Source of the DNA: Escherichia coli
Lineage (GTDB): Bacteria; Pseudomonadota; Gammaproteobacteria; Enterobacterales; Enterobacteriaceae
Direction: 5' to 3' (one strand)
Assembly: GCF_003334305.1 (NCBI RefSeq)
Contig: NZ_QOWS01000007.1
Length of the DNA: 64,000 nucleotides
This document shows, piece by piece, positions 5,280 through 56,221 of the stretch. The position numbers and the translations under genes are program-made. The notes under the pieces were generated by a model. That model searched no databases. It was not told the origin of the DNA and saw only the letters and a list, made by a program, of their open reading frames with translations. How positions within the stretch are numbered: position 1 is the first letter of the stretch; every line of letters starts with the position of its first letter.

Positions 5280-6892
<1,613 letters not shown>

Positions 6893-6960
6893 ATGAATTC
6901 CTCCGGTAGCCATCCCTCTACATTCATAGAGGGAATGGCAGATAAAATACTTACGGATAA

Positions 6961-8433
6961 TTATTTATTTTTCTTGATGTGCTTCATCAGACGCTTACGT
7001 TTACGCATCTGGGTTGGCGTCAGGGTGTTACGCTTGTTCGCATACGGGTTTTCCCCTTCTTTGAACTGAATACGAATCGGCGATCCCATTACGTCCAGCG
7101 ATTTGCGGAAGTAGTTCATCAAGTAGCGCTTGTAGGAATCAGGCAGGTCTTTCACCTGATTACCGTGAATCACCACAATCGGCGGGTTATAACCACCAGC
7201 GTGGGCATATTTCAGCTTCACACGACGACCGCGTACCAGCGGCGGTTGGTGATCTTCAACAGCCATCGTCATGATGCGCGTCAGCATAGAGGTCCCCACA
7301 CGACGGGTGGAGCTGTCATACGCTTCACGTACTGATTCAAACAAGTTACCAACACCACTGCCGTGCAAGGCAGAGATAAAGTGCACACGAGCAAAATCGA
7401 TAAAGCCCAGACGGAAGTCCAGCGTTTCTTTCACCTGCTCTTTCACTTCCTGGCTCAGGCCATCCCACTTATTCACCACAATGACAAGTGAGCGCCCACT
7501 ATTGAGAATAAAGCCCAGCAGCGAGAGATCCTGATCGGAAATACCTTCGCGCGCATCAATCACCAACATCACCACGTTGGCATCTTCAATGGCCTGCAAC
7601 GTTTTGATTACGGAGAATTTCTCTACAGCATCGGTGATTTTGCCGCGTTTACGTACGCCAGCGGTGTCAATGAGCACATACTCACGTCCATCGCGTTCCA
7701 TTGGGATATAGATGCTGTCACGCGTCGTACCAGGCATGTCATAAACAACAACGCGCTCTTCACCAAGAATACGGTTAGTGAGTGTAGACTTACCTACGTT
7801 CGGACGACCCACAATCGCCAGTTTGATCGGCAGACTTTGCGGGTCAAAGTCGTCTTCCTCTTCTTCTTCGCCGTTCTCTTCCGCTTCAAATTGCGCCCAG
7901 TATTCAGCGTCTTCGTCGACTTCCTCTTGCGGTGCGAGATCTTCCATCCACGGCAGCAGCACATGCTCCAGCAGACTTAATACGCCACGACCGTGAGACG
8001 CGGCGATCGGGTAGATTTCACCTAAGCCAAGCGAGTAGAAATCAACCACTGCCTGATCGGGATCCAGACCGTCAGTTTTGTTTGCCACCAGGAAGGTCGG
8101 TTTTTCACGGGAGCGCAGATGTTTGGCAATCGCTTCATCTGCCGGCATCAGGCCCGCGCGCGCATCCACCATAAACAGTACGACGTCCGCTTCTTCAATC
8201 GCCAGCAGCGACTGTTCCGCCATGCGGGTTTCTACACCGTCTTCTGTGCCATCAATCCCGCCGGTATCAATACAGATAAACTCACGGCCTTCAATTTCCG
8301 CACGACCGTACTTACGGTCACGAGTCAGACCCGGGAAATCCGCAACCAGCGCATCTCGGGTGCGAGTTAGACGGTTAAATAACGTGGATTTTCCTACGTT
8401 AGGGCGCCCGACAAGCGCGACCACAGGTACCAT
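6961..8433 (-). CDS. der: ribosome-assembly GTPase Der (EngA), 490 aa
   Basis: Two GTPase domains each with [10 protein letters not shown]-loop; start at [20 protein letters not shown] (track ORF is a 13-codon 5' extension). Confidence 0.93.
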
Positions 8434-42607: not shown

Positions 42608-43819
<1,212 letters not shown>

Positions 43820-43915
43820 CCAGGATAATTAGCGAATATCTCAATGCCTGGGGCGTGGCGAGGTGCAAGAGTGTGTATTACGTTTAAATCACATTATCTT
43901 GCAAAGGGATTGGTT

Positions 43916-44338
43916 ATGAACACACTACGTTATTTTGATTTTGGAGCTGCCCGCCCCGTTTTGTTATTAATTGCCCGTATCGCCGTGGTCTTAATTTTCA
44001 TTATTTTTGGTTTTCCCAAAATGATGGGCTTTGACGGTACGGTCCAATATATGGCCTCGTTGGGCGCGCCAATGCCGATGCTGGCAGCGATTATTGCGGT
44101 AGTTATGGAAGTGCCCGCCGCGATATTAATCGTGCTTGGCTTTTTCACCCGTCCGCTGGCGGTGCTGTTTATTTTCTACACGCTGGGTACGGCGGTGATT
44201 GGTCACCATTACTGGGATATGACCGGCGATGCGGTTGGGCCAAATATGATTAATTTCTGGAAGAATGTCAGTATCGCTGGCGCATTCCTGCTGCTGGCAA
44301 TTACCGGGCCGGGGGCAATTTCTCTCGATCGGCGTTAG
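43916..44338 (+). CDS. yphA: DoxX-family inner-membrane protein YphA, 140 aa
   Basis: Start at MNTLRYFDF (ATG 43916); four hydrophobic segments. Confidence 0.85.
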
Positions 44339-44342
44339 GAAA

Positions 44343-44379
44343 GATGCCGGATGCGGCGTGAACGCCTTATCCGGCATTT
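44343..44379. repeat. REP element between yphA and yphB
   Basis: gatgccggatgcggcgtgaacgccttatccggcattt. Confidence 0.65.
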
Positions 44380-44385
44380 AATAAA

Positions 44386-45258
44386 TTACAGCCACTCTAC
44401 CCGCAACGACATCTCTGAAGTTGTTGATTCCCCTGGTGCTAGCGCAATGAGATCACCCCCTTCCGGGCGATGATGATCATCCGGCGCATGGCTCATCGGT
44501 TCCAGACAGAAGAAATCAAACGCATATCCTTTATCAAACGCAGGGTCGGAAACAAAGATGAAATAACACGGTGCAGGTGGCGTCGTTTCCATGATGATGG
44601 CATAACCTTCCTGCGGCTGCTCGATGCGGGCCTGACCATTCCATCCGGCAAAACCATTGTTCACCCACTGGCGCGGCAACGGCGCGGGCTGGTTAAAATC
44701 CAGTTCCTGCGGTAGCTGCTCGCAAAACTCACCCGCCAGCCACTGCTCCCGCTCCAGCCAGTAACCGCTCGCCTGTGCCTGAATCCGCGTTTGCGGCGAC
44801 AACGGAAAATAAGGATGCCAGCCGGTACCAAATGGCAGCGTCTCTGCCCCTTGATTGGTGACAGAGAGCGTCACCGTCAGCGTATCCGCCGTTAAATGAA
44901 ACGCCTGACTTACCCGATAGTGATAGACACCGCTGCGATGTTCATACACCAGACACAAACTATCATCGCTGTGCGAGACACATTGCCACTCGCCCAGCCA
45001 GCCATCGCCGTGTAGATAGTGCGCATCCCACTCAACATTCGGTTGCAGTTGATACTCACGCCCCTGCCAGACAAAACGATTGCCGCTCACCCGGTTTGCA
45101 AATGGCACCAGCGGAAAACATGAGGCATCGGTTGCCACACCGCTTTTTTTACCAGGACGTAAGAGCGGCGTCGTATCGCGCCAGAAGCCTTCGATTACGC
45201 CGCCCTGGTCAGAAACGTCCAGCTTTAGCGACCCGTGGGATAAGGTATAGATGGTCAT
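44386..45258 (-). CDS. yphB: aldose 1-epimerase (mutarotase) family protein YphB, 290 aa
   Basis: Full-length ORF; family assignment from memory. Confidence 0.85.
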   Translation of the reverse strand: MTIYTLSHGSLKLDVSDQGGVIEGFWRDTTPLLRPGKKSGVATDASCFPLVPFANRVSGNRFVWQGREYQLQPNVEWDAHYLHGDGWLGEWQCVSHSDDSLCLVYEHRSGVYHYRVSQAFHLTADTLTVTLSVTNQGAETLPFGTGWHPYFPLSPQTRIQAQASGYWLEREQWLAGEFCEQLPQELDFNQPAPLPRQWVNNGFAGWNGQARIEQPQEGYAIIMETTPPAPCYFIFVSDPAFDKGYAFDFFCLEPMSHAPDDHHRPEGGDLIALAPGESTTSEMSLRVEWL

Positions 45259-45269
45259 CCGCTAACTCC

Positions 45270-46331
45270 TTAATCCGGGAAGTTAATCACAACTTTCCCG
45301 CATTTGCCGCTCGCCATCAGCGCATAGGCATCACCTGCCTGTTCCAGCGAGAAGCGATGGGTAATGGCGTTACGCGGCCACAGTTTCCAGTCCGTCAGAT
45401 CATGGGCGCATTTTTCCATATGGAACAGACTGGTCACCCAGGAGCCGATAATCCGCCGTTGATGGTGCATCAGATCGGCGCTGACCTCGAACTCCACTTT
45501 TCCGGTTTCTCCGATGTAAACCACCCGTCCCCAGTCAGCGGTGGATCGCAGTGCCAGCAAGCGACCTGCGGCATTACCAGAACAATCGAGCGCAACATCC
45601 GCGCCACCGTGGGTGAGTTCGGCGATAATCTGCGGCAGACCTTCGGTGGTTGCTAAATAGCCGTGATCCATCACCCCTAACTGTTTTGCCATCGCCAGAC
45701 GTTCCGGCAGCATATCAACGCCGATGATCCGTTTTGCACCGCGACCTTTCGCCAGCATCATCGCCATCATGCCGACTGGCCCCAGACCGACCACCAGCAC
45801 GTTATCACTGCCGGAAACTTCGCCGCGCAAAATCCCTTCATAGGCCGTGCCAACGCCGCAACTGATAAACGCACCATCTTCGTAGCTCAGCGCATCCGGC
45901 AGGAGGATCAGATCTTTTTCTTCCGCCAGCAGATATTCGGCATGACCGCCGTCACGCTGCCAGCCGTAAGCCGCTTTTCCTTTGCCAGTACAAGAGATAG
46001 GAAAGCCGCGGCGGCAGTTCGGGCAAAAACCACAGCCAGAAATGTGATACACCAGCACGCGATCACCCTCTTTAAAATGGCGACAGCCTTGCCCCATCGC
46101 CACAATCTGCCCGCACGGTTCATGACCGTTGATAAATCCCTGGTATAACGGTTTATCGGGTGCCGCCGCCGTGGCACGGTGTTGATGATAGATATAGTGG
46201 ACATCGCTTCCGCAAATCCCGGAGGATTTCATTTTGATCAGTACCTGGTTAATCCCCGGCGTCGGCACCGCAACTTCCCGCAGATCGACGGTTGAATTTC
46301 CTGGTAAATAAGCTGCCAGCATCGTTTTCAT
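45270..46331 (-). CDS. yphC: Zn-dependent alcohol/polyol dehydrogenase family protein YphC, 353 aa
   Basis: Start at MKTMLAAYL; zinc-ADH signature GHEPCGQIVAMGQG; structural-zinc Cys cluster CGFCPNCRRGFPISC; Rossmann VVGLGPVG. Confidence 0.85.
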   Translation of the reverse strand: MKTMLAAYLPGNSTVDLREVAVPTPGINQVLIKMKSSGICGSDVHYIYHQHRATAAAPDKPLYQGFINGHEPCGQIVAMGQGCRHFKEGDRVLVYHISGCGFCPNCRRGFPISCTGKGKAAYGWQRDGGHAEYLLAEEKDLILLPDALSYEDGAFISCGVGTAYEGILRGEVSGSDNVLVVGLGPVGMMAMMLAKGRGAKRIIGVDMLPERLAMAKQLGVMDHGYLATTEGLPQIIAELTHGGADVALDCSGNAAGRLLALRSTADWGRVVYIGETGKVEFEVSADLMHHQRRIIGSWVTSLFHMEKCAHDLTDWKLWPRNAITHRFSLEQAGDAYALMASGKCGKVVINFPD

Positions 46332-46396
46332 AAATCCCTCATTAACAATACGATTAATTTTCATCCCTGCCGCACCCGCGCCAGGGGCGTTAAGGT

Positions 46397-47395
46397 TTAG
46401 CGTTTCGCTTTACTGCTTCGCTGGGTCAGCAAGATATTCGCCAGCACCGCCACCACGATGATGACGCCGCGTACCACCTGCTGGAAAAAGGAGTTAATAC
46501 CGAGCAGCACCAGACCGTTACCGATTAGCGTAATCACCAGCACACCAAGCAATGTACCGAACAGGGAACCGCGACCGCCGGAAAGTGCCGTACCGCCGAC
46601 CACGACCGCGGCGATGACGTCAAACTCCAGACCGTTTGCGGCACCTGCGTTACCAGAACCGAGGCGCGCCGCCAACAAAATGCCGGTCACCGCCGCTAAT
46701 AATCCCGAAAGGGTAAAGATAAGAATGCGCACCCGACGAACGTTGATGCCGCACAACTGCGCCGCCGTAGCATTACCGCCAACGGCAAAAACCGAGCGCC
46801 CGAAGGCGGTTTTGCGGCTGATGAACACAAACAGCGCAAACAACACAATCATGATCAGCGCGGATACCGGCACACCGAGAAATTGTCCGCCCAGCCAGTC
46901 CAGCACCTCGTTTTCGTCAATCGGCACTGGCAGTGCGTTCGTCATAAACAGCCCCATTCCGCGCAGGGCGCTCCACAGCCCCAGTGTGGCAACGAAACTT
47001 GGTACGTTAAACACGCCGCGCAGCACCCCGGCCAGCGTTCCCATCAGCGCGCCTAACAGCAACACCAGCAGACACGCCACCGCCAGCGGAACTTCAAATT
47101 GCAGCAAAAATGCCAGGCACACCGAGACAAAAGCCACCATCGGCCCAACGCTGACATCAATTTCACCGGAGATAATAATCAGCGTCATCGCCCAGGCGGC
47201 AATCCCAATGGTGGCGGCATCGCGCAGCACGTTCATCTGGTTATTCAATGAGATAAAGCCAGGCGCGTTCAGGGAGAAGACCAGATAAAGAATGGCGATT
47301 ACCACCAGCAAACCGATCTCATTAATATGGCGACTGACAAATTGTTTGAGCGAGACGCTCTTGCCCTGCGGCAATGATAATGACGAAGCAGACAT
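46397..47395 (-). CDS. yphD: sugar ABC transporter permease YphD, 332 aa
   Basis: Multi-TM hydrophobic protein, ribose/xylose-type permease pattern. Confidence 0.88.
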   Translation of the reverse strand: MSASSLSLPQGKSVSLKQFVSRHINEIGLLVVIAILYLVFSLNAPGFISLNNQMNVLRDAATIGIAAWAMTLIIISGEIDVSVGPMVAFVSVCLAFLLQFEVPLAVACLLVLLLGALMGTLAGVLRGVFNVPSFVATLGLWSALRGMGLFMTNALPVPIDENEVLDWLGGQFLGVPVSALIMIVLFALFVFISRKTAFGRSVFAVGGNATAAQLCGINVRRVRILIFTLSGLLAAVTGILLAARLGSGNAGAANGLEFDVIAAVVVGGTALSGGRGSLFGTLLGVLVITLIGNGLVLLGINSFFQQVVRGVIIVVAVLANILLTQRSSKAKR

Positions 47396-47419
47396 CTTCA
47401 GGTTCCTCGGTAAAATTCA

Positions 47420-48931
47420 TCAGTGCACAGACAGAATGGCGGACATCAGCTCATCCACATTGACCGGCGAGTGAAACTCCTGCGAGAACGTACCGTGCTG
47501 TAACAACAGGATGCGGTCGCACACCAGCGGCAACTCCTCCACTTCACTGGAGATAAACACCACGCTTTTTCCTTCGGCAGCCAGCTCACGGACAATACGG
47601 TAAATCTGCTGTTTGGCTTCGATATCGACGCCGCGCGTTGGCTCGTCGAGCAACAAAATCTGGCTGGCGGCATAGACCCAACGACCGATCACCACTTTTT
47701 GCTGATTGCCGCCAGAAAGCGTGCCGATGGGCGTTTCGCTACTGGCGGCCTTGACCGTCATCCGCTGCATCACCTCTTCGGTCAGGCGGCGGATGGTGGA
47801 CCATTGCAGTACGCCGTTGGCGCTGATTTTTTGCCGATTGGTCAGCACTGTATTTTCGTCAACGCCCAACCAGGGAATGATCCCCGCTTCTTTGCGGTTT
47901 TCTGGCGTATAGCCAATGCCGCGTTTCAGCATGTCGCCGTAATCGGGGCGCGTGATTTTCTCGCCGTTGATAACAATTTCGCCCTGTTCATACTCCTCCA
48001 GCCCAACAATCGCCTTCAGCAATTCACTGCGCCCTGCCCCCAGCAGGCCAGCAATGCCAAGCACTTCGCCGCGACGTAACGTAAAGCTGATATCCTCCAG
48101 CTTGGGCTTATGGCGTAATGCACGGACTTCCAGCACGGCCTGATCCACAATTTCCTGAGGGGCTACCGGCGCAATATCAACGTGATCACGCCCTAGCATT
48201 AGCGACACAATATGATGCGTGGAGGTGTTTTCGAGCATCACATCGCCCGCCACCTGACCATCGCGCATAACGGTGGCACAGGAGGCAATGCGGCGGATTT
48301 CTTCCATCCGGTGGCTGACATAAATCACCGCCACGCCCAGTGCCGACATCTTTTTCACCGCACTGATCACCAGTTCAACTTCTGCACTGGCAAGCGAGCT
48401 GGTGGGTTCATCAAGAATGACCACGCGCGGCTCGCCCTTCATCACCCGTGCAATTTCCACCAGTTGCTTTTGCGCCGGGCTTAGCGTTGAAACAAGTTGT
48501 TCAGGACTAACGTCAACGCCCAGCGCCTGTAAGCAACGTTGGGCATCCTGCGCCATTTGCAGGTAATCAATCATGCCGTTGCGGCGAGGCCATTGACCAA
48601 GGCAGAGGTTTTCTGCCACCGTCAGCCCTTCCACCAGACTTAATTCCTGATAAACCGCACGAACCCCCAGTTCAGCGGCACGGCGAGTCAACGTAGCTTC
48701 GTCACCTTCCAGTCGCGTCTCGCCAATCCAGATATCACCGCTATCCGGGCGTTCGCTGCCGGTAAGCATTCGAATGAGAGTCGATTTGCCCGCGCCGTTT
48801 TTACCTAACAGCGCACGAACTTCGCCTTTATTGAGCGTGAAGTTAACGTTATCCAGCGCAACGACGCCGGGGTAACGCTTATTTCCTGCCACCACTTTTG
48901 CTACCGGGACTGCCTCTGTTGCCGTGAACAT
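47420..48931 (-). CDS. yphE: sugar ABC transporter ATP-binding protein YphE (duplicated ATPase), 503 aa
   Basis: Two Walker A motifs GKNGAGKST and GLLGAGRSE; two signature motifs LSPAQKQ and LSGGNQQK. Confidence 0.9.
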   Translation of the reverse strand: MFTATEAVPVAKVVAGNKRYPGVVALDNVNFTLNKGEVRALLGKNGAGKSTLIRMLTGSERPDSGDIWIGETRLEGDEATLTRRAAELGVRAVYQELSLVEGLTVAENLCLGQWPRRNGMIDYLQMAQDAQRCLQALGVDVSPEQLVSTLSPAQKQLVEIARVMKGEPRVVILDEPTSSLASAEVELVISAVKKMSALGVAVIYVSHRMEEIRRIASCATVMRDGQVAGDVMLENTSTHHIVSLMLGRDHVDIAPVAPQEIVDQAVLEVRALRHKPKLEDISFTLRRGEVLGIAGLLGAGRSELLKAIVGLEEYEQGEIVINGEKITRPDYGDMLKRGIGYTPENRKEAGIIPWLGVDENTVLTNRQKISANGVLQWSTIRRLTEEVMQRMTVKAASSETPIGTLSGGNQQKVVIGRWVYAASQILLLDEPTRGVDIEAKQQIYRIVRELAAEGKSVVFISSEVEELPLVCDRILLLQHGTFSQEFHSPVNVDELMSAILSVH

Positions 48932-48953
48932 AGGGACCTCTGCGAATCAGCGA

Positions 48954-49937
48954 TTAGGGCAGACCATCAACGTGCGTTGCCAGCCACTGTTTACCATCTT
49001 CCGTTTTGGTATAGAGATCGATTGGCACCTGAATCACTTTTTCACCGTCGGCTTGTTTATTGATAACCTTCAATGTTTGCGCGAAAACAGCATTGCCCAT
49101 TTTCTTACCGGAAATATCCACTACCGCTTTCAGCACCTGATTGTTTTCCAGCTCCTGAGCAATTTCGGTTGTCATATCCGAACCGAAAACAGCAATTTTT
49201 CCGGCCTGATTTTGATTACGTACCGCTTTTACCGCGCCGAGTGTCGCACCGCCCGACTCCCCCATAATGGCGTTGAGATCCGGCGTGGAGATAATCAGTT
49301 TTTCACCAACGGAAATCGCTTTATCTAAAACAGTCCCTTCCTGATTAGCGACAATTTGCGCGCCGGGAACGCGGGATTTTAATACTTCTTCAAATCCTTT
49401 ACGTCGCTGCACACAAACTTCAAAGGCTTCGCAATTGATGACGGCAATTTTCGGCTGGTCAATTTTATTGGCAATAAAATAATCGGCGGCAGCGTTACCC
49501 AGTTTTTTACCAAATTCCAGTGGATCGCCGACCAGATACGCCGAGACATATTTATCGACACCCTTTTGATTAATACAGGTGTTGTAGCAAATCACCGGAA
49601 TACCCGCTTCACTGGCGCGACGAACGGTACGGCTACTGCCATTTTCAGACACTGCCGATAAAATAATGGCATCGACATTACGCGCCACGAGGGTATCAAC
49701 AAAGGTACTTTCTTTCGAAATATCACCCTGGGCGTTAGTTTCAATTAACTGTACCTGTACTGAAGAATCTTTTGCCGCATCCTGAACGCCCTGACGCACT
49801 CCAGCGTAATATCCCTGGGTATCAAGGTATATTGCACCAATGGTCATCTCTTTATCCGCAGCCCTGGCAAATAGTGCGCTACCTAATAGCGTACCCATTA
49901 ATAATAGATTACGGGTTGTTCTCATTTTTTTAGGCAT
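48954..49937 (-). CDS. yphF: periplasmic sugar-binding protein YphF, 327 aa
   Basis: Signal peptide MPKKMRTTRNLLLMGTLLGSALFARA; type I periplasmic binding protein-like. Confidence 0.88.
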   Translation of the reverse strand: MPKKMRTTRNLLLMGTLLGSALFARAADKEMTIGAIYLDTQGYYAGVRQGVQDAAKDSSVQVQLIETNAQGDISKESTFVDTLVARNVDAIILSAVSENGSSRTVRRASEAGIPVICYNTCINQKGVDKYVSAYLVGDPLEFGKKLGNAAADYFIANKIDQPKIAVINCEAFEVCVQRRKGFEEVLKSRVPGAQIVANQEGTVLDKAISVGEKLIISTPDLNAIMGESGGATLGAVKAVRNQNQAGKIAVFGSDMTTEIAQELENNQVLKAVVDISGKKMGNAVFAQTLKVINKQADGEKVIQVPIDLYTKTEDGKQWLATHVDGLP

Positions 49938-50033
49938 AGTGCCTCCTGTAGGGTTTTTATTAACAACGGCTTATTCTAATTATTTTGTGATGAGCGGCAG
50001 CGCGTGCCGCTCAAATATTACAGTTAATAGGGT

Positions 50034-53000
50034 TTAGTGAACGTAGTTAAAAATAAAAGGCATCACGGTGGTGAATAATGCCGCTTTCGGCCAGGCCGGA
50101 TTAATCGCCGTCAATTCAGCGCGAGCAGATTCATATTGCGCAACCTCCCCGAGTCCCGCGGACGCCAGCATCGCCACCATCAGGCATTTTTCTTTATGCT
50201 GCTGTTGTAAATCGCCATACAGCGACAACAGGTCAGGTTGTGAAACAGCAAAGAAATCCGCCTCAATACTGGTTTTCGCCATCTCTTGCGCCCACTGTTT
50301 CATTTCACTAAACAGTTGCTGTGCGGTTTGCTGTTCACCCAGCAGTCGCAGCGCCATTCCTTGCCAGAAGAGATAATCAACCGGCTGATCGTTGTAATAA
50401 CTGTGGATGTTAATGGTGCGATCGCCGGTCGCCGCCAGACGTAAACAACGCATCGCTTCAGTTTCATCGCCCTGCGCGTTGGCGCATATCGCCTGCCAGA
50501 ACCAGATGTCGTTATCAGTTTGCCCCGGTAAACGGCCTTCGCTTAAATTCTCCGGATAATGCAGCGCGGCATGAAGCAGTTCGCTGGCCTGCTGCGGCTC
50601 TCTGGCATCAAGATGCTGCCAGGCGCGTAATAACTGGTTGAGGATAAACTGACTGGTGACCTTCCCTTCCCCGCCTTCCCACGGGTGGAATTTGCGCGTG
50701 GCGAGAATGTCCGCCGCTTTGTCTGCCTGACCCGTGAGATGCCACAAATTGAGCAACTCTGCTGTCATGTCGTCGCGTTTCAGCGCAATTTCCAGATTAT
50801 TTTCCAGACGCGCCAGTCGTTTCTCCGGTGTGGCTCCGCTTAACTTATCAAGCAAATCCCGTTCGAAAAGCAGACGTGCATCCTGCGGCGCAAGCTGATA
50901 AGCATTATCAAGATAACGCGCGGCCAGCTCATAATCGTGTTGCTTATTCCACGCATGGATCGCTAACCCGCGCCAGCCGTCGGCAAACTCCGGCGACATC
51001 TCTACGCAACGTTGCCATAAGGTAATGGCTTTGTTGTAGCTACGCTTGTTGTAGTAGAAGCAGGCCAGTAAATGACGGGCAAACCAGCACTCTTCAATAC
51101 TCTCCAGCGCCGCCACTTCTTCCAGCGTATTCGGGAAACGGACAAACTGCGGGAAGACATCAATGGCTTTTGCGACCAGTTCGCCGCGTTCGGCTTTCGG
51201 CAATAAACTCGCCTGCAGGTAAAGCGGCAGCGTGCGCTGGCAGTCCAGTGCGTTCAGCATCTCTGCCGCCAGGGTGGGCATTCCCCAGTTAATCAGTTGC
51301 CCGGCGGTCATCAGAGCGTTAACGTCGCGTCCCTGACACAGACCGCGCCACTGCGCGAGAGCTGATTCGCTACGACCATCGAACCAGTTCAGCCACCACA
51401 GAGTGGCGTTCAGCGGATAATCGCGCAGCAGTTTCTCGCGCTGCACACGCGCGTTGTCCTGACGACCACTTAACACCAGCAGCAGATTATGCAGGCAAAG
51501 CACTTCCTGATTGGTTGGGCAGGCGCGAAGACTTTGTTGGCAAAAATCCAGACCAGCGTCGAAGTTACCATTACGCGCCGCCAGTCGTGCCAGGCCATAA
51601 TAGCCACCGGCTTTGCTGTTGCCGCTCCAGACCGCACGCCAGAAATCCTCTTCGGCTTGTTGATATTGTCCCTGACGTTCGTAAGCACTGGCGCGAATCA
51701 AACTGGCCTGTCCGCACTGCGGATTTTTGTTCAGCGCATGTGCGCGTTTCAGCGCCTGAGTGGCATACGCCACCGCTTGCGGGAAATCGGCGCGGTTATA
51801 TTCCAGCATCGCCAGCGCCAGGTTACAGCGGTAATCCAGCGGATCCAGCACCACGCCGCGCAGGTAGTAATCGAACGGTGAACGGCTGGCGTGATGATAT
51901 TGCTCCAGATGCTGACCGATAAACCAGGCTTCATCTGTACTGGTAATGTCTTGTGCTGCCAGTGGCGCTTTGGCGACGTCCGGCAACGGCAACTCTTGCG
52001 GCTGATGTTCCTGATAACTCAGTACAATATTGCCGTCGGCATCGGAGAGCTCAATGGTCAGCCTTTCAGGATTGATACCGTGCAACACGCCCTGGATGGC
52101 GGTCGCAGGCATCAGTGCCACGGCATCATCAAGTAACGCGTTGCATTTGCCGATTTCGCGGATCGCCAGGCGGTATCCGTTCAACGGAGAGATGGCATAC
52201 AGCCCCCACTCAATCCCCCGCTTACTACGCTGGAGTTTTATCACCGCATCGCGGGAGGCATTTTGCACCATGCCCAAAGAATGATAAGGCAGGAAATACT
52301 GCTCAAAACGCATCTCTTCGTAAGCATCAAGCCAGGTAAAATCGGGCTGGTTATCGGCAAAAATACCGGTCATCAGTTCGATATACGGGCCGTTATTGTC
52401 GGTCAGACTCTTATCCCACGCCTGGCCAAATTCACTGTGTCCCCAACTCCACTGTTTTTTACCTGGCGCGATATGGTGGTTGGCAACGTGCAGCAAACCG
52501 CCATCTTCATCGTGACACCACGCGCCGACAAAATCGTACTGCGATTTTTCGGCCATATATGAGGTTGGAACAGGCACATTTTTATAGCGAGAAATGTCCA
52601 CTCCGGCGGAGTAGTCCACTTTGTAGTAAGTGCCGGTGGCGATGGGGAAAGCGGAGACGGCCCGTTTGCCGTGATCAAACACCGCAGTCACATCCGGTGG
52701 GAAAACGCTCTGATGCCCTTCCCCCCCTTTCACTGCCGGGTTGGCCCACCACAAGAAATGACGCGGCGTGGCGTTACCGTTATAGACGCGGCTGGCGATT
52801 TCCAGCGCCGCCCGTTCAGGACGCAGTGTGAAACCTGTCATCACCTGTAAACCGTGCATCGGCTCCGTTTCGCCGACCCACACCGTCTGTGCGCCGTCTT
52901 CATGGGCTTCGAGGGTGAAATCAACGGGCATAAAGGTGGTCGGGCGATGGTGTTGCGGCCAGTTAAACTCAATCCCGCCAGAGATCCACGGTCCCAGCAG

Positions 53001-53315
53001 CCCCACCAGCGCAGGTTTAATGACTTCATTGTGATAGACAAAATCGCGTTGTTTCACTTTATCCCATGCGCGATGCACACGACCGCCCAGTTCCGGCAGG
53101 ATCATCACTTTGATGTAGTCGTTTTCCAGCCACACCGCCTGCCAGGATTTCAGGGTTTTCTGCTCGCTCAGCGTATCGGTCACGCCGTAGGGATAAACCG
53201 CGCCGGACGATCCCTGATAAACGCGATTTTCCAAGAACATGGGATGTATATCCTGCGGCCCGGTTTCATAGGTCGGGATCTCAACGCGCTCTTGCCACAC
53301 TTTTACTGGAGTCAT
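50034..53315 (-). CDS. yphG: large uncharacterised protein YphG, 1093 aa (N-terminal domain of unknown function plus C-terminal helical repeats)
   Basis: Start at MTPVKVWQERVE (track ORF is a 31-codon extension); no signal peptide seen; C-terminal half rich in Ala/Leu/Trp/Tyr helical repeats. Confidence 0.8.
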   Translation of the reverse strand: MTPVKVWQERVEIPTYETGPQDIHPMFLENRVYQGSSGAVYPYGVTDTLSEQKTLKSWQAVWLENDYIKVMILPELGGRVHRAWDKVKQRDFVYHNEVIKPALVGLLGPWISGGIEFNWPQHHRPTTFMPVDFTLEAHEDGAQTVWVGETEPMHGLQVMTGFTLRPERAALEIASRVYNGNATPRHFLWWANPAVKGGEGHQSVFPPDVTAVFDHGKRAVSAFPIATGTYYKVDYSAGVDISRYKNVPVPTSYMAEKSQYDFVGAWCHDEDGGLLHVANHHIAPGKKQWSWGHSEFGQAWDKSLTDNNGPYIELMTGIFADNQPDFTWLDAYEEMRFEQYFLPYHSLGMVQNASRDAVIKLQRSKRGIEWGLYAISPLNGYRLAIREIGKCNALLDDAVALMPATAIQGVLHGINPERLTIELSDADGNIVLSYQEHQPQELPLPDVAKAPLAAQDITSTDEAWFIGQHLEQYHHASRSPFDYYLRGVVLDPLDYRCNLALAMLEYNRADFPQAVAYATQALKRAHALNKNPQCGQASLIRASAYERQGQYQQAEEDFWRAVWSGNSKAGGYYGLARLAARNGNFDAGLDFCQQSLRACPTNQEVLCLHNLLLVLSGRQDNARVQREKLLRDYPLNATLWWLNWFDGRSESALAQWRGLCQGRDVNALMTAGQLINWGMPTLAAEMLNALDCQRTLPLYLQASLLPKAERGELVAKAIDVFPQFVRFPNTLEEVAALESIEECWFARHLLACFYYNKRSYNKAITLWQRCVEMSPEFADGWRGLAIHAWNKQHDYELAARYLDNAYQLAPQDARLLFERDLLDKLSGATPEKRLARLENNLEIALKRDDMTAELLNLWHLTGQADKAADILATRKFHPWEGGEGKVTSQFILNQLLRAWQHLDAREPQQASELLHAALHYPENLSEGRLPGQTDNDIWFWQAICANAQGDETEAMRCLRLAATGDRTINIHSYYNDQPVDYLFWQGMALRLLGEQQTAQQLFSEMKQWAQEMAKTSIEADFFAVSQPDLLSLYGDLQQQHKEKCLMVAMLASAGLGEVAQYESARAELTAINPAWPKAALFTTVMPFIFNYVH

Positions 53316-53432
53316 GGTGCCCTCAATATTAACAAGACATACTGAATTAAAAGATTTGTGGCAGTGTATTGAACAATCTGGCAATGTTTTCGCGGAATAA
53401 TCACGCAATTAACTAAACAAGGTTTAGTGAAG

Positions 53433-54626
53433 ATGAGAGCCTGCATTAACAATCAACAGATTCGCCACCATAACAAATGCGTGATTCTGGAACTGCTGTA
53501 CCGGCAAAAGCGCGCCAATAAATCAACGCTGGCCCGGCTGGCGCAAATTTCGATTCCGGCAGTCAGTAATATTTTGCAGGAACTGGAAAGCGAAAAACGG
53601 GTGGTGAATATCGACGATGAAAGCCAGACGCGCGGGCATAGTAGCGGTACATGGCTGATTGCGCCGGAAGGTGACTGGACGCTGTGCCTGAACGTGACGC
53701 CCACCAGTATTGAGTGTCAGGTTGCTAATGCTTGTTTAAGTCCGAAAGGCGAGTTTGAGTATTTACAGATTGATGCACCGACGCCGCAGGCGCTGCTGTC
53801 CGAAATCGAAAAATGCTGGCATCGCCACCGTAAATTGTGGCCGGACCGCACCATCAATCTGGCGCTGGCAATCCACGGTCAGGTTGATCCGGTGACCGGC
53901 GTGTCGCAAACCATGCCGCAAGCGCCGTGGACAACGCCGGTGGAGGTGAAATATCTGCTGGAAGAGAAGCTCGGCATTCGGGTGATGGTCGATAATGACT
54001 GCGTGATGCTGGCGCTGGCGGAGAAATGGCAAAATAATTCGCAGGAACGGGATTTCTGCGTGATCAACGTTGATTACGGCATTGGCTCGTCGTTCGTGAT
54101 TAACGAGCAAATTTATCGCGGCAGTTTGTATGGTAGCGGACAGATTGGTCACACCATCGTTAATCCGGATGGCGTCGTCTGCGACTGTGGACGTTACGGC
54201 TGCCTGGAAACCGTCGCCTCGTTAAGTGCTTTAAAAAAACAGGCGCGGGTATGGCTAAAATCACAACCGGTTAATACTCAGCTTGATCCTGAAAAACTGA
54301 CAACCGCGCAGTTAATCGCTGCCTGGCAGAGTGGAGAACCGTGGATCACCAGCTGGGTTGACCGCAGTGCCAATGCCATTGGTTTGAGTCTGTATAACTT
54401 CCTCAACATCCTCAATATTAATCAGATTTGGTTGTACGGTCGCAGTTGTGCCTTTGGTGAGAACTGGCTTAATACTATTATTCGCCAGACAGGATTTAAC
54501 CCGTTCGACCGCGACGAAGGACCGAGCGTGAAAGCGACGCAAATTGGCTTCGGGCAATTAAGCCGCGCACAACAGGTGCTGGGAATTGGCTATTTGTATG
54601 TTGAGGCGCAGTTACGACAGATTTGA
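53433..54626 (+). CDS. yphH: ROK-family transcriptional regulator YphH (NagC/Mlc-like), 397 aa
   Basis: Start taken at ATG 53433 (MRACINN; track ORF starts at GTG 53427); N-terminal HTH; ROK zinc motif CDCGRYGCLE. Confidence 0.85.
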   Translation: MRACINNQQIRHHNKCVILELLYRQKRANKSTLARLAQISIPAVSNILQELESEKRVVNIDDESQTRGHSSGTWLIAPEGDWTLCLNVTPTSIECQVANACLSPKGEFEYLQIDAPTPQALLSEIEKCWHRHRKLWPDRTINLALAIHGQVDPVTGVSQTMPQAPWTTPVEVKYLLEEKLGIRVMVDNDCVMLALAEKWQNNSQERDFCVINVDYGIGSSFVINEQIYRGSLYGSGQIGHTIVNPDGVVCDCGRYGCLETVASLSALKKQARVWLKSQPVNTQLDPEKLTTAQLIAAWQSGEPWITSWVDRSANAIGLSLYNFLNILNINQIWLYGRSCAFGENWLNTIIRQTGFNPFDRDEGPSVKATQIGFGQLSRAQQVLGIGYLYVEAQLRQI

Positions 54627-54644
54627 TGGCGCGATAACGTAGAA

Positions 54645-54669
54645 AGGCTTCCCGAAGGAAGCCTTTTTT
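54645..54669. terminator. bidirectional terminator between convergent yphH and glyA
   Basis: aggcttcccgaaggaagcct hairpin followed by ttttt. Confidence 0.6.
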
Positions 54670-54689
54670 CAACAGATTAACCGTTTCGC

Positions 54690-55943
54690 TTATGCGTAAA
54701 CCGGGTAACGTGCGCAGATGTCGAGAACTTTACCTTTGATGCGCTCGATAACGGCTTCATCATTGATGCTGTCCAGCACGTCACACATCCAGCCAGCCAG
54801 TTCTTTCGCTTCTGCTTCTTTGAAGCCGCGACGCGTAATTGCCGGAGTACCCACGCGAATACCGGAGGTCACAAACGGGCTCTTCGGATCGTTCGGTACG
54901 CTGTTTTTGTTGACGGTGATGTTAGCACGGCCCAGAGCGGCGTCTGCTTCTTTACCGGTCAGGTTTTTATCGACCAGATCAACCAGGAACAGATGGTTAT
55001 CAGTACCGCCGGAAACCACTTTGTAGCCGCGTTCCAGGAACACTTCTACCATCGCTTTAGCGTTTTTAGCGACCTGCTGCTGGTAAGTTTTGAACTCAGG
55101 CTCCATCGCTTCTTTCAGAGCAACCGCTTTACCGGCGATTACGTGCATCAACGGACCGCCCTGACCACCAGGGAAAACGGCAGAGTTCAGTTTTTTGTAC
55201 AGCTCTTCGCTACCACCTTTCGCCAGGATCAGGCCGCCGCGCGGACCCGCCAGGGTTTTGTGAGTGGTGGTAGTAACAACGTGAGCATGAGGAACCGGGT
55301 TCGGGTAGACGCCAGCAGCAACCAGGCCCGCAACGTGCGCCATATCAACGAACAGGTAAGCACCGATGCTGTCAGCGATTTCACGCATTTTCGCCCAGTC
55401 CACCACGCCGGAATATGCAGAGAAACCACCGATAATCATTTTCGGCTTGTGTTCTTTGGCTTGTTTTTCCAGATCGGCGTAGTCGATATGACCGGTAGCA
55501 TCGATACCGTAAGGAACGATGTTGTACAGTTTACCGGAGAAGTTAACCGGAGAACCGTGAGTCAGGTGACCGCCATGCGCCAGGTTCATACCCAGAACGG
55601 TATCACCTGGTTCCAGCAGCGCGGTGTAGACCGCAAAGTTAGCCTGGGAGCCGGAGTGCGGCTGGACGTTAGCGTAGTCAGCGCCGAACAGTTCTTTCGC
55701 ACGATCGATCGCCAGTTGTTCAACGATATCAACATACTCGCAACCGCCGTAGTAGCGTTTGCCCGGATAACCTTCAGCATATTTGTTGGTCAGCTGAGAA
55801 CCCTGCGCCTGCATTACGCGCGGGCTGGTGTAGTTTTCGGAGGCGATCAGTTCGATGTGCTCTTCCTGACGTACTTTTTCCTGCTCCATAGCCTGCCACA
55901 GTTCGGCATCATAATCGGCAATGTTCATTTCACGCTTTAACAT
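54690..55943 (-). CDS. glyA: serine hydroxymethyltransferase, 417 aa
   Basis: Start at [19 protein letters not shown]-lysine region [14 protein letters not shown]. Confidence 0.97.
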
Positions 55944-56221
55944 CCGCATCTCCTGACTCAGCTAACAATAAAATTTTTGGCCTTTATAGGCGGTCCTGTT
56001 GGACAACGGCGAACAGTATAACCGAATCATTGTGCGATAACAGGTCTTGACAAAGGAATTTACGCAAACGATTACCTTCAGGCTACGCAAGGCTTTGGAG
56101 AATAAAGAGCTTGCAACCGGAAACGGATTTCTTTTCAGGTTTGTGATGCAAATTTTTCACTTCATCACATTCTTTCTGAAAAACACCAAAGAACCATTTA
56201 CATTGCAGGGCTATTTTTTAT

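Follow-up and report, generated by a model that had tools for sequence, protein, structure and literature searches.

The yph genes, yphA to yphH, occupy a 10.7-kb segment (positions 43916-54626) of a 64-kb stretch of Escherichia coli DNA, hereafter called the window. In all likelihood they form a regulator-controlled monosaccharide catabolic locus centred on YphG, a protein that a preliminary description of this DNA had merely listed and that is both the centre of the system and its truly unexplained component. The cluster is a mosaic: its cross-phylum core consists of a regulator, YphG, a sugar transporter and a mutarotase, and yphFED together with yphC are a laterally mobile add-on. The locus is annotated core genome and hence not itself a discovery. 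New here are a concrete, predicted substrate class, a candidate operator and YphG as a large, uncharacterised cross-phylum family coupled to sugar porters. Few multi-gene carbohydrate loci in K-12-type genomes of E. coli still lack a substrate; the yph genes are one such case, and the "unknown sugar or polyol" assigned to them is narrowed to a testable list, namely galactose-type aldoses and their oxidation toward galactonate.

The composition of the core emerged from a neighbourhood census, in which open reading frames were called and clustered in 88 YphG loci of Enterobacterales, Bacteroidota and Firmicutes, 80 of them picked as the most similar to E. coli and not as a random sample. Genes within three genes of YphG were counted as near. 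A XylE-like sugar porter is near YphG in 59 of the 88 loci and adjacent to it in 46, and a transporter of any kind, either of the major facilitator superfamily (MFS) or of the CUT2 class of ATP-binding cassette (ABC) importers, is present in 65. Regulators near YphG are of the AraC type (42/88) or the ROK family (18/88). A mutarotase of any subfamily lies near YphG in 28 loci, and these enzymes fall into three unrelated subfamilies: the YphB type, a GalM type that passes the NF008277 subfamily cut-off, and a Paenibacillus type. Since three mutarotase families appear to have been recruited independently, YphG would be expected to use or make one anomer of a free reducing sugar.

The kind of sugar is suggested by the glycosidases that accompany YphG. 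GH2 genes are near it in 30 of the 88 loci, with the exo-beta-1,4-galactosidase BT4151 as nearest model (916 bits), and a GH97 alpha-galactosidase-like gene (640 bits) or a GH36 gene in eight; the YphG neighbours in Bacteroidota are often beta- and alpha-galactosidases and GalM. These neighbours point to galactose or to sugars with the same ring configuration. Sulfatases are near YphG in seven loci, from marine flavobacteria. In the marine Flavobacteriia loci L067, L070, L077, L080 and L083, YphG is found amid sulfatases, an SGNH esterase, two GH2 genes and a sugar porter, a context that suggests a link to sulfated or acylated galactan or galactolipid.

The mosaic structure becomes apparent when gene orders are compared among relatives of E. 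coli. In Aeromonas, Serratia, Lelliottia and Limnobaculum, a ROK gene is divergent from YphG, which is accompanied by a XylE-like MFS porter and a short epimerase, without ABC transporter or YphC. Klebsiella carries the E. coli-type arrangement at the same glyA locus, and Lelliottia carries the MFS arrangement at that very locus. Serratia quinivorans has a ROK gene divergent from the order YphG-MFS-YphF-YphE-YphD-YphC-YphB, with the ABC and YphC block inserted between porter and epimerase. E. coli YphC is 83% identical to its orthologue in the betaproteobacterium Aquitalea (L094, 12576-13640), the corresponding value for YphB being only 56%; this degree of YphC identity argues for recent lateral movement of the ABC and dehydrogenase block. 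The preliminary description had presented the cluster as one compact module. The gene block exists as described, with all genes present, but it is not a single unit, as it comprises the conserved core, the mobile yphFED and yphC genes and, in yphA, probably a bystander. The boundaries given at that time begin at yphA, a gene missing from the accompanying text, and we first assumed yphA to be part of the unit. This was rejected on the synteny of Klebsiella and Lelliottia, where the DoxX gene has remained beside glyA, at the other end of the cluster, and thus behaves as an ancestral neighbour. The single NCBIfam match of yphA is weak, at 41 bits for a cut-off of 80.

YphG is composed of a mutarotase-like beta supersandwich (residues 1-345), a small beta domain (357-435) and a tetratricopeptide repeat (TPR) solenoid of about 34 helices (460-1092), the latter recognised by repeated helix pairs matching TPR profiles. 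AlphaFold models reached a pLDDT of 96.4 for residues 1-480 and of 95.8, with a pTM of 0.93, for the full-length protein, and the supersandwich of the model places residues 1-345 in the galactose mutarotase superfamily by predicted fold. A search with residues 1-480 yielded 3899 clusters (representatives at 50% identity) at E ≤ 0.001 and 881 at E ≤ 1e-30, and most clusters keep a length of about 1100 residues. Across Enterobacterales and Aeromonas, homologues of 54-83% identity retain this whole architecture. Scanning one genome per species, we found the family in at least 596 species at 53-57% identity to the E. coli protein over 480 residues, including about 55% for Bacteroidota. Among its hosts are Enterobacterales, Aeromonas, Photobacterium, Paenibacillus, Clostridia and many Bacteroidota (Flavobacterium, Pedobacter, Mucilaginibacter, Parabacteroides, Prevotella, Bacteroides). 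Invariant or nearly invariant are K100, E116, N118, H122, H123, R124, N179, N192, H215, D306, E313, N322, Q323 and D325; several tryptophans and tyrosines and, in the helical part, the motifs LEQY... and FHPWEGGEG are conserved as well. None of the YphG homologues examined has a signal peptide, and the VKVW.E...IPTY motif begins at most a few dozen residues from the predicted N-terminus.

From the identity across phyla, the invariant polar and aromatic residues, the confident models, the mutarotase fold and the lack of a signal peptide, YphG looks like an enzyme. We tentatively propose, giving the idea slightly less than an even chance, that YphG represents a new and ancient class of cytoplasmic carbohydrate-converting enzymes, in which an active site in the mutarotase sandwich is clamped by the TPR solenoid, and which is wedded to porters and mutarotases and acts on galacto-configured sugars by a reaction absent from pathway maps. 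This reaction could be a cofactor-independent isomerisation, a ring rearrangement or a new glycosidase activity. A variant of this model, different in the YphG step and in our view unlikely, takes the last option further: YphG would be a cytoplasmic glycoside hydrolase of a new kind, acting on a galactoside of very small size (such as glyceryl-, methyl- or inositol-), and the mutarotase would equilibrate the freed galactose for the Leloir pathway or for YphC. YphG might instead be non-catalytic, a sugar-sensing scaffold whose TPR solenoid controls the regulator or the transporter, by analogy to the sequestration of Mlc by PtsG. In favour of this, TPR solenoids typically serve protein-protein contacts, in Enterobacterales the YphG gene and the regulator gene diverge in every case, and YphH has an atypical linker for a member of the NagC/Mlc group (PMC4288165). 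However, YphG remains about 55% identical although its partners vary, the regulator in family (42 loci with AraC, 18 with ROK) and the transporter in class; conservation is concentrated in the pocket-like polar set of the sandwich domain, and some YphG homologues have no regulator nearby. Thus, we consider a scaffold role very improbable.

Known proteins offer few points of comparison for YphG. YphG has no detectable sequence or profile relation to GalM and the short aldose 1-epimerases YeaD, YihR and YphB; unlike them, it combines the sandwich with a second beta domain and about 630 residues of TPR solenoid, and it conserves another set of residues. Fold searches of AFDB50 returned only DUF5107 and TPR proteins of unassigned function, some of them algal, and a search with full-length YphG retrieved no characterised enzyme with the same two-domain architecture. 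The structure 5CD6 (BDI_1685 of Parabacteroides distasonis) was deposited in the PDB as "TPR-domain containing protein" and differs from YphG in its length of only about 580 residues; a paper on it was not found in the literature available to us, which lacks most subscription journals. Within the same literature, DUF5107 is named in a single paper, in which an orthogroup with this domain and unassigned function ranks, beside digestive enzymes, among the best indicators of phagotrophy in 30 stramenopile genomes (PMC8163842). The YphG family, with its roughly 3,900 sequence clusters, members in gut Bacteroidota and Prevotella and a sugar porter nearly always adjacent, is thus one without a characterised member and with one orphan crystal structure. 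Once its reaction is assigned, thousands of genes in polysaccharide-utilisation loci from gut, soil and marine habitats would gain an annotation, and a missing step in the metabolism of galactose or arabinose-type sugars might come to light.

The add-on genes encode an importer and a dehydrogenase. YphDEF belong to the CUT2 (monosaccharide) importers, based on Peripla_BP_1/4 domains in YphF, two ABC_tran domains in YphE and an RbsC/AraH-like permease, YphD; in YphD and YphE orthologues, Pfam assigns BPD_transp_2 to the permease and two ABC_tran domains to the ATPase. The CUT2 assignments imply a substrate of monosaccharide size. The named-sugar CUT2 equivalogs for ribose, arabinose, xylose, galactose, allose, autoinducer-2 (AI-2) and galactofuranose are not reached by YphDEF: the best NCBIfam model is AlsB for YphF (65 bits, cut-off 335), AraG (456 bits, cut-off 689) followed by XylG (435 bits, below cut-off) as full-length matches for YphE, and RbsC (227 bits, cut-off 398) followed by AraH (221 bits, below cut-off) for YphD. 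Indeed, none of the eight yph proteins attains an NCBIfam equivalog cut-off. The nearest solved chain to YphF is 5HSG (1e-24), a structural-genomics entry with no ligand in its molecule name; next in the list are binders of ribose, galactofuranose, galactose and allose. The duplicated ATPase attributed to YphE in the preliminary description is evident from its two ABC halves, and the signal peptide attributed to YphF corresponds to the signal-peptide-like N-terminus MPKKMRTTRNLLLMGTLLGSALFARA.

YphC is a zinc-dependent member of the medium-chain dehydrogenase/reductase (MDR) family with ADH_N and ADH_zinc_N domains, the GHEPCG motif already noted earlier, a four-cysteine loop of the structural-zinc type (CGFCPNCRRGFPISC) and, as GxGxxG motif, the sequence GLGPVG. 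An acidic residue at the end of strand beta-2 of a Rossmann fold conventionally indicates NAD over NADP. In YphC, GLGPVG is followed by ...IGVD, with an aspartate at the end of beta-2, and by this convention the cofactor would be NAD. The genomic context and a Pfam Glu_dehyd_C match (3.7e-10) make YphC a candidate aldose 1-dehydrogenase. Scores against MDR equivalogs stay below their cut-offs for Tdh (171 against 380 bits), IolM (168 against 450), galactitol-1-phosphate 5-dehydrogenase (107 against 550) and L-idonate 5-dehydrogenase (89 against 469). The annotated YphC has 364 residues; orthologues and alignments start 11 codons later, giving 353 residues, and the true start is probably the ATG at 46331, the annotated one being too early.

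Evidence for a link to galactonate came from YphF homologues outside the enteric bacteria (57-69% identity), which head operons with a galactonate dehydratase in Aquitalea, Agrobacterium and Rhizobium, as judged by the dehydratase equivalog NF010624 (DgoD, cut-off 311 bits). The Aquitalea operon, YphF-E-D-YphC-YphB without YphG or ROK, lies beside the dehydratase (649 bits), a dgoA-type 2-keto-3-deoxy-6-phosphogalactonate (KDPGal) aldolase (285 bits, cut-off 207), a short-chain dehydrogenase/reductase (SDR) and an SGL-family lactonase. In Agrobacterium, a GntR/FCD regulator is divergent from the order binding protein-ATPase-permease-epimerase-GMC oxidoreductase-dehydratase (729 bits), followed by an SDR of the Aquitalea type. 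Rhizobium shares this order up to the dehydratase (725 bits), with no SDR after it. The two halves of the yph cluster meet in YphB, whose subfamily (44-72% identity) is common to YphG-MFS clusters and to ABC-DgoD clusters, which ties both halves to the same sugar class. YphB is identical to the chain in PDB 3NRE (E 5e-210), an entry titled only "putative aldose 1-epimerase", and its single NCBIfam match is the aldose-1-epimerase model PRK15172. The PF01263 fold and conserved His/His/Glu positions identify YphB as a likely aldose 1-epimerase; H83, H148 and E253 are invariant in a six-genus alignment and, by analogy to GalM, would be the catalytic residues. In the literature, the YphB structure served only as a structural reference in work on sulfoquinovose mutarotase (PMC5902678).

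The outline of the preliminary description, sugar uptake followed by conversion, is well reflected in a CUT2-type importer, a mutarotase, a zinc MDR dehydrogenase and a ROK-type regulator. As to its "sugar or polyol", the sugar is retained and the polyol is disfavoured, since the context favours a galactose-type aldose oxidised toward galactonate. A polyol route would have YphFED import a sugar alcohol or cyclitol, which YphC, as a sorbitol-dehydrogenase-type enzyme, would oxidise to a ketose or aldose for processing by YphB and YphG. Within the MDR family, YphC indeed falls in the polyol/threonine dehydrogenase branch, the solved structures near it include dehydrogenases of xylitol, sorbitol and galactitol-1-phosphate, and its IolM score is that given above; YphF is weakly similar to rhizopine and allose binders, and the two oxidoreductases that accompany DgoD in the outside contexts would fit one step upstream of an aldose. 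Against this, no polyol-specific equivalog is matched, the mutarotase that always partners the ABC and dehydrogenase genes needs a reducing sugar, the clusters lacking YphC use a XylE-like sugar porter, and the downstream genes in the outside contexts are sugar-acid genes. We therefore judge the polyol route unlikely.

Taken together, a composite scheme, which we consider possible but hold with some reserve, runs from the uptake of an aldose of galacto configuration through the exchange of its anomers to oxidation in the direction of galactonate, with a YphG reaction in addition. Its substrate would be D-galactose, a close analogue such as D-fucose or L-arabinose, or a very small galactoside. 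An ancient layer would consist of yphH, yphG, a sugar transporter and yphB, with a proton symporter as the original importer. YphB would interconvert the anomers of the imported sugar, and YphG, with its active site in the mutarotase-like sandwich held by the TPR solenoid, would carry out an anomer-sensitive conversion in the cytoplasm, be it an isomerisation, a ring rearrangement or the release of sugar from a tiny glycoside, whose product would need no further dedicated enzymes. In the Escherichia/Klebsiella lineage, an acquired layer would have brought yphFED, a high-affinity CUT2 importer, in place of the proton symporter, and YphC, which would oxidise the aldose at C1 in an NAD-dependent reaction to the aldonolactone and thence to D-galactonate. 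E. coli carries dgo genes elsewhere in its genome, and the D-galactonate could be consumed via these separate genes. YphH would act on the palindrome TTCACTAAAC-N3-GTTTAGTGAA in the yphH/yphG divergent region and upstream of yphF, and would be released by the sugar.

One close known counterpart to the add-on is the De Ley-Doudoroff pathway of galactose and galactonate, which is represented in E. coli by dgoRKADT and comprises galactose dehydrogenase, lactonase, DgoD, DgoK and DgoA in other bacteria. In Aquitalea, Agrobacterium and Rhizobium, a YphF-type importer and a YphB-type epimerase adjoin an equivalog-level DgoD; the dehydrogenase slot is taken by YphC in Aquitalea and by a GMC oxidoreductase in Rhizobiaceae, and Aquitalea adds the DgoA-type aldolase and the SGL lactonase. 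In its logic, a sequence of import, exchange of anomers and oxidation at C1, the pathway fits yph as well. In contrast to a pathway locus, however, the E. coli yph locus lacks lactonase, dehydratase, kinase and aldolase, and no dgo-type genes (lactonase, DgoD, DgoK, DgoA) are annotated around the cluster from hcaE to glrR. Furthermore, YphC is an MDR zinc enzyme and lies outside the characterised galactose dehydrogenase families, and YphG has no counterpart in this pathway. The sulfoquinovose (yih) and sulfofucose clusters resemble yph in having a dedicated transporter, a short mutarotase of the YihR/YphB type and an anomer-specific first enzyme. For sulfofucose, the pathway employs an ABC importer, a dehydrogenase, an SGL lactonase and a DgoD-like dehydratase, with a mutarotase as an optional component (PMC12421959; PMC5902678). 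Unlike these clusters, yph contains no sulfonate-handling genes, GH31 or isomerase, and the Aquitalea aldolase is of the phospho-type PF01081 and not PF03328.

Several observations weigh against the composite scheme and the part assigned to YphG in it. The census was biased toward loci similar to E. coli. The galactosidase neighbours occur in only about one third of the loci and are restricted to Bacteroidota and Firmicutes. The Glu_dehyd_C match of YphC is modest, and its best curated models are threonine and scyllo-inosose dehydrogenases, far below cut-off. In Aquitalea and Agrobacterium, two of the three outside contexts, conservation of DgoD goes together with that of an SDR of the PRK07063 type, which might be the actual aldose dehydrogenase of these operons; YphC or the GMC oxidoreductase would then be left with another step. 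At the E. coli yph locus, a lactonase gene is absent. Comparison of the YphG and YphB families by hhalign gave a probability of 0.14%; as this is not significant, YphG would share the fold without being a member of the mutarotase sequence family, and Pfam likewise assigns it to DUF5107 and not to PF01263, which places it outside the aldose 1-epimerase family. A promoter and terminator scan gave nothing above shuffled expectation, with no sigma-70-like promoter in the yphG-yphH spacer. Classically, Leloir mutants of E. coli fail to grow on galactose, so that a bypass from galactose to galactonate would have to be silent, weak or meant for an analogue. Moreover, the scheme gives no clear chemical reason for galactose to need YphG, and an experiment on any of its steps was not found in the literature. 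Separately, mapping of the YphG catalytic residues by the YphG-YphB profile comparison was dropped, as there was no signal and the additional YphB homologues were too close (at least 46% identity).

The regulator gene yphH is divergent from the YphG gene in all 17 loci in which the two are adjacent (Enterobacterales, Aeromonas, Photobacterium). YphH is a ROK transcription factor and not a kinase, with an N-terminal helix-turn-helix (HTH), the zinc motif CDCGRYGCLE, which like GHEPCG of YphC had been correctly read from the translations, and, judged by eye, no kinase DxGxT loop. It aligns with Mlc from residue 9 onwards (PDB 1Z6R/3BP8, 1e-22); orthology to NagC or Mlc is not indicated, with 112 of 650 and 109 of 530 bits, respectively, relative to the equivalog cut-offs. 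Next to its gene lies a 23-bp inverted repeat (O1) with arms of 10 nt that are 90% complementary; it occupies nucleotides 2-24 ahead of the yphH ATG and precedes the ATG of yphG by about 95 nt. O1 has one mismatch to the pattern, for which 0.21 chance matches are expected in the window, and is conserved in the corresponding position in Aeromonas, Serratia, Lelliottia and Klebsiella. A second copy, O2, lies across the stop codon of yphG, and the yphF ATG follows about 90 nt further on; its Klebsiella equivalent is TTAACTAAAGAGCGTTTACTGTA, and in Lelliottia the second copy lies just upstream of yphG. O1 and O2 are the sole sites in the window that match at least 15 of the 20 positions of the palindrome consensus, and a scan at this threshold of about 1.5 Mb in 91 loci and the window found sites at the equivalent yph places and at only one other position. 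This palindrome is a good candidate for the YphH operator, and from its conservation we infer that YphH may bind these sites and act as a repressor. The copies at yphG/yphH and upstream of yphF suggest two controlled units, yphG and yphFEDCB. The predicted operator also offers an immediate way to approach YphH, the one ROK regulator of E. coli that is still uncharacterised.

Half-sites of NagC and Mlc operators are A/T-rich, and the candidate YphH palindrome (CACTAAAC/GTTTAGTG) is unlike them, although it has the same overall 23-bp length. YphH shares with these repressors the HTH and the ROK domain with zinc motif; in contrast to them, its linker lacks the conserved GR motif (PMC4288165). The same study lists YphH, with its atypical linker, as the third uncharacterized ROK repressor of E. 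coli, and other work still counts it among the transcription factors without assigned function (PMC9308461, PMC4797297). An alternative yphG reading frame of 1124 residues, starting at TTG 53408 and extended over 53316-53408, would reach the edge of the candidate operator; the 1093-residue start (ATG 53315) is favoured because the N-terminus conserved across phyla begins there. The spacers among yphB, C, D, E and F measure 11-32 nt, and that between yphF and yphG 96 nt. Two hairpins, at the end of yphG and in the yphG-yphF spacer (Table 1), together suggest attenuation or separate transcripts. A CRP site in the invariant box ATTGCGTGAT beside O1 was considered and dropped, because the second half-site is a poor match in each of the four genera sharing the box.

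Table 1 Position of the yph genes, flanking genes and candidate regulatory elements in the window.
Feature	Position	Strand	Description
hcaD	end 43819		flanking gene
yphA	43916-44338	+	DoxX-family membrane protein (annotation)
yphB	44386-45258	-	short aldose 1-epimerase (mutarotase)
yphC	45270-46364	-	zinc MDR dehydrogenase
yphD	46397-47395	-	single permease of CUT2 ABC importer
yphE	47420-48931	-	fused double ABC ATPase, 503 residues
yphF	48954-49937	-	periplasmic binding protein
GC-rich hairpin	49992-50012	-	GAGCGGCAcgcgcTGCCGCTC; yphG-yphF spacer; stem conserved in Klebsiella; no T-run after
O2	50019-50041	-	second candidate YphH operator; TTCACTAAACCCTATTAACTGTA; 16/20 match to palindrome consensus
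yphG	50034-53315	-	1093 residues, cytoplasmic, DUF5107 and TPR
Terminator-like hairpin	50049-50082		with T-run; inside last yphG codons
Invariant box	53400-53409	-	ATTGCGTGAT; beside O1; identical in E. coli, Aeromonas, Serratia and Lelliottia
O1	53409-53431	+	candidate YphH operator; TTAACTAAAC-AAG-GTTTAGTGAA; 23-bp inverted repeat
yphH	53433-54626	+	ROK-family transcription factor
glyA	54690-55949		flanking gene

The presence and positions of yphB to yphH in the preliminary description agree with our analysis, and all eight reading frames from yphA to yphH are intact in the window. The 10.7-kb segment is 100% identical to that of E. coli strain A7 and is matched in all 5426 complete E. coli genomes, with a single piece covering 80% or more of it in 5371, in line with the core-genome status claimed earlier. 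An Rfam search of 43800-54750 found no RNA families. A cryptic remnant with no present function in E. coli would be compatible with the lack of a reported phenotype or substrate, with the truncated YphB and YphG products in many assemblies and with the failure to find a recognisable promoter (PMC9308461). It is difficult to reconcile with the eight intact frames, with a yphG gene covered to at least 80% in 5420 of the 5426 complete genomes, with the conserved operator sites and with the expression of YphF, whose protein level rises 3.0- to 4.6-fold on levoglucosan in comparison to fructose (PMC8753852). Such a remnant is therefore highly unlikely in our view. The shortened products themselves are YphB entries of about 198-200 residues (clusters of 337 and 336 members, and NCBI-named entries of 200 residues) and YphG entries of 900 (1109 members) and 692 residues (1402 members); they could reflect lineage-specific decay or contig ends.

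As the preliminary description had stated, no assigned substrate was found, nor any functional study of the yph genes, in literature that lacks most subscription journals and thus cannot prove absence; a 2023 review refers to yphFED as a "putative" sugar ABC transporter (PMC10305011). Many literature matches to yph names were false, among them the B. subtilis GTPase YphC, peptide sequences, "YpHCA" yield symbols and taxonomic catalogues. Levoglucosan itself was rejected as evidence for a yph substrate: YphF rises along with mgl, mal, xyl and ugp proteins, and its increase is therefore read as catabolite derepression (PMC8753852).

Further genes were observed next to the yph-type clusters. In Klebsiella, Lelliottia and Citrobacter, the epimerase gene is followed by a LacY-like symporter and a PRD-domain protein (L005, 15701-18121; L007, 19115-21522; L023), and in one Citrobacter a GH36 gene and an open reading frame of 462 residues, possibly a transporter, adjoin the ROK gene. 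In L092, at 5543-7919, the Agrobacterium operon is preceded by two more enolase-superfamily genes and a peptide-type ABC transporter, and one of these enolase-superfamily genes passes the equivalog for the D-mannonate dehydratase ManD (695 bits, cut-off 550).

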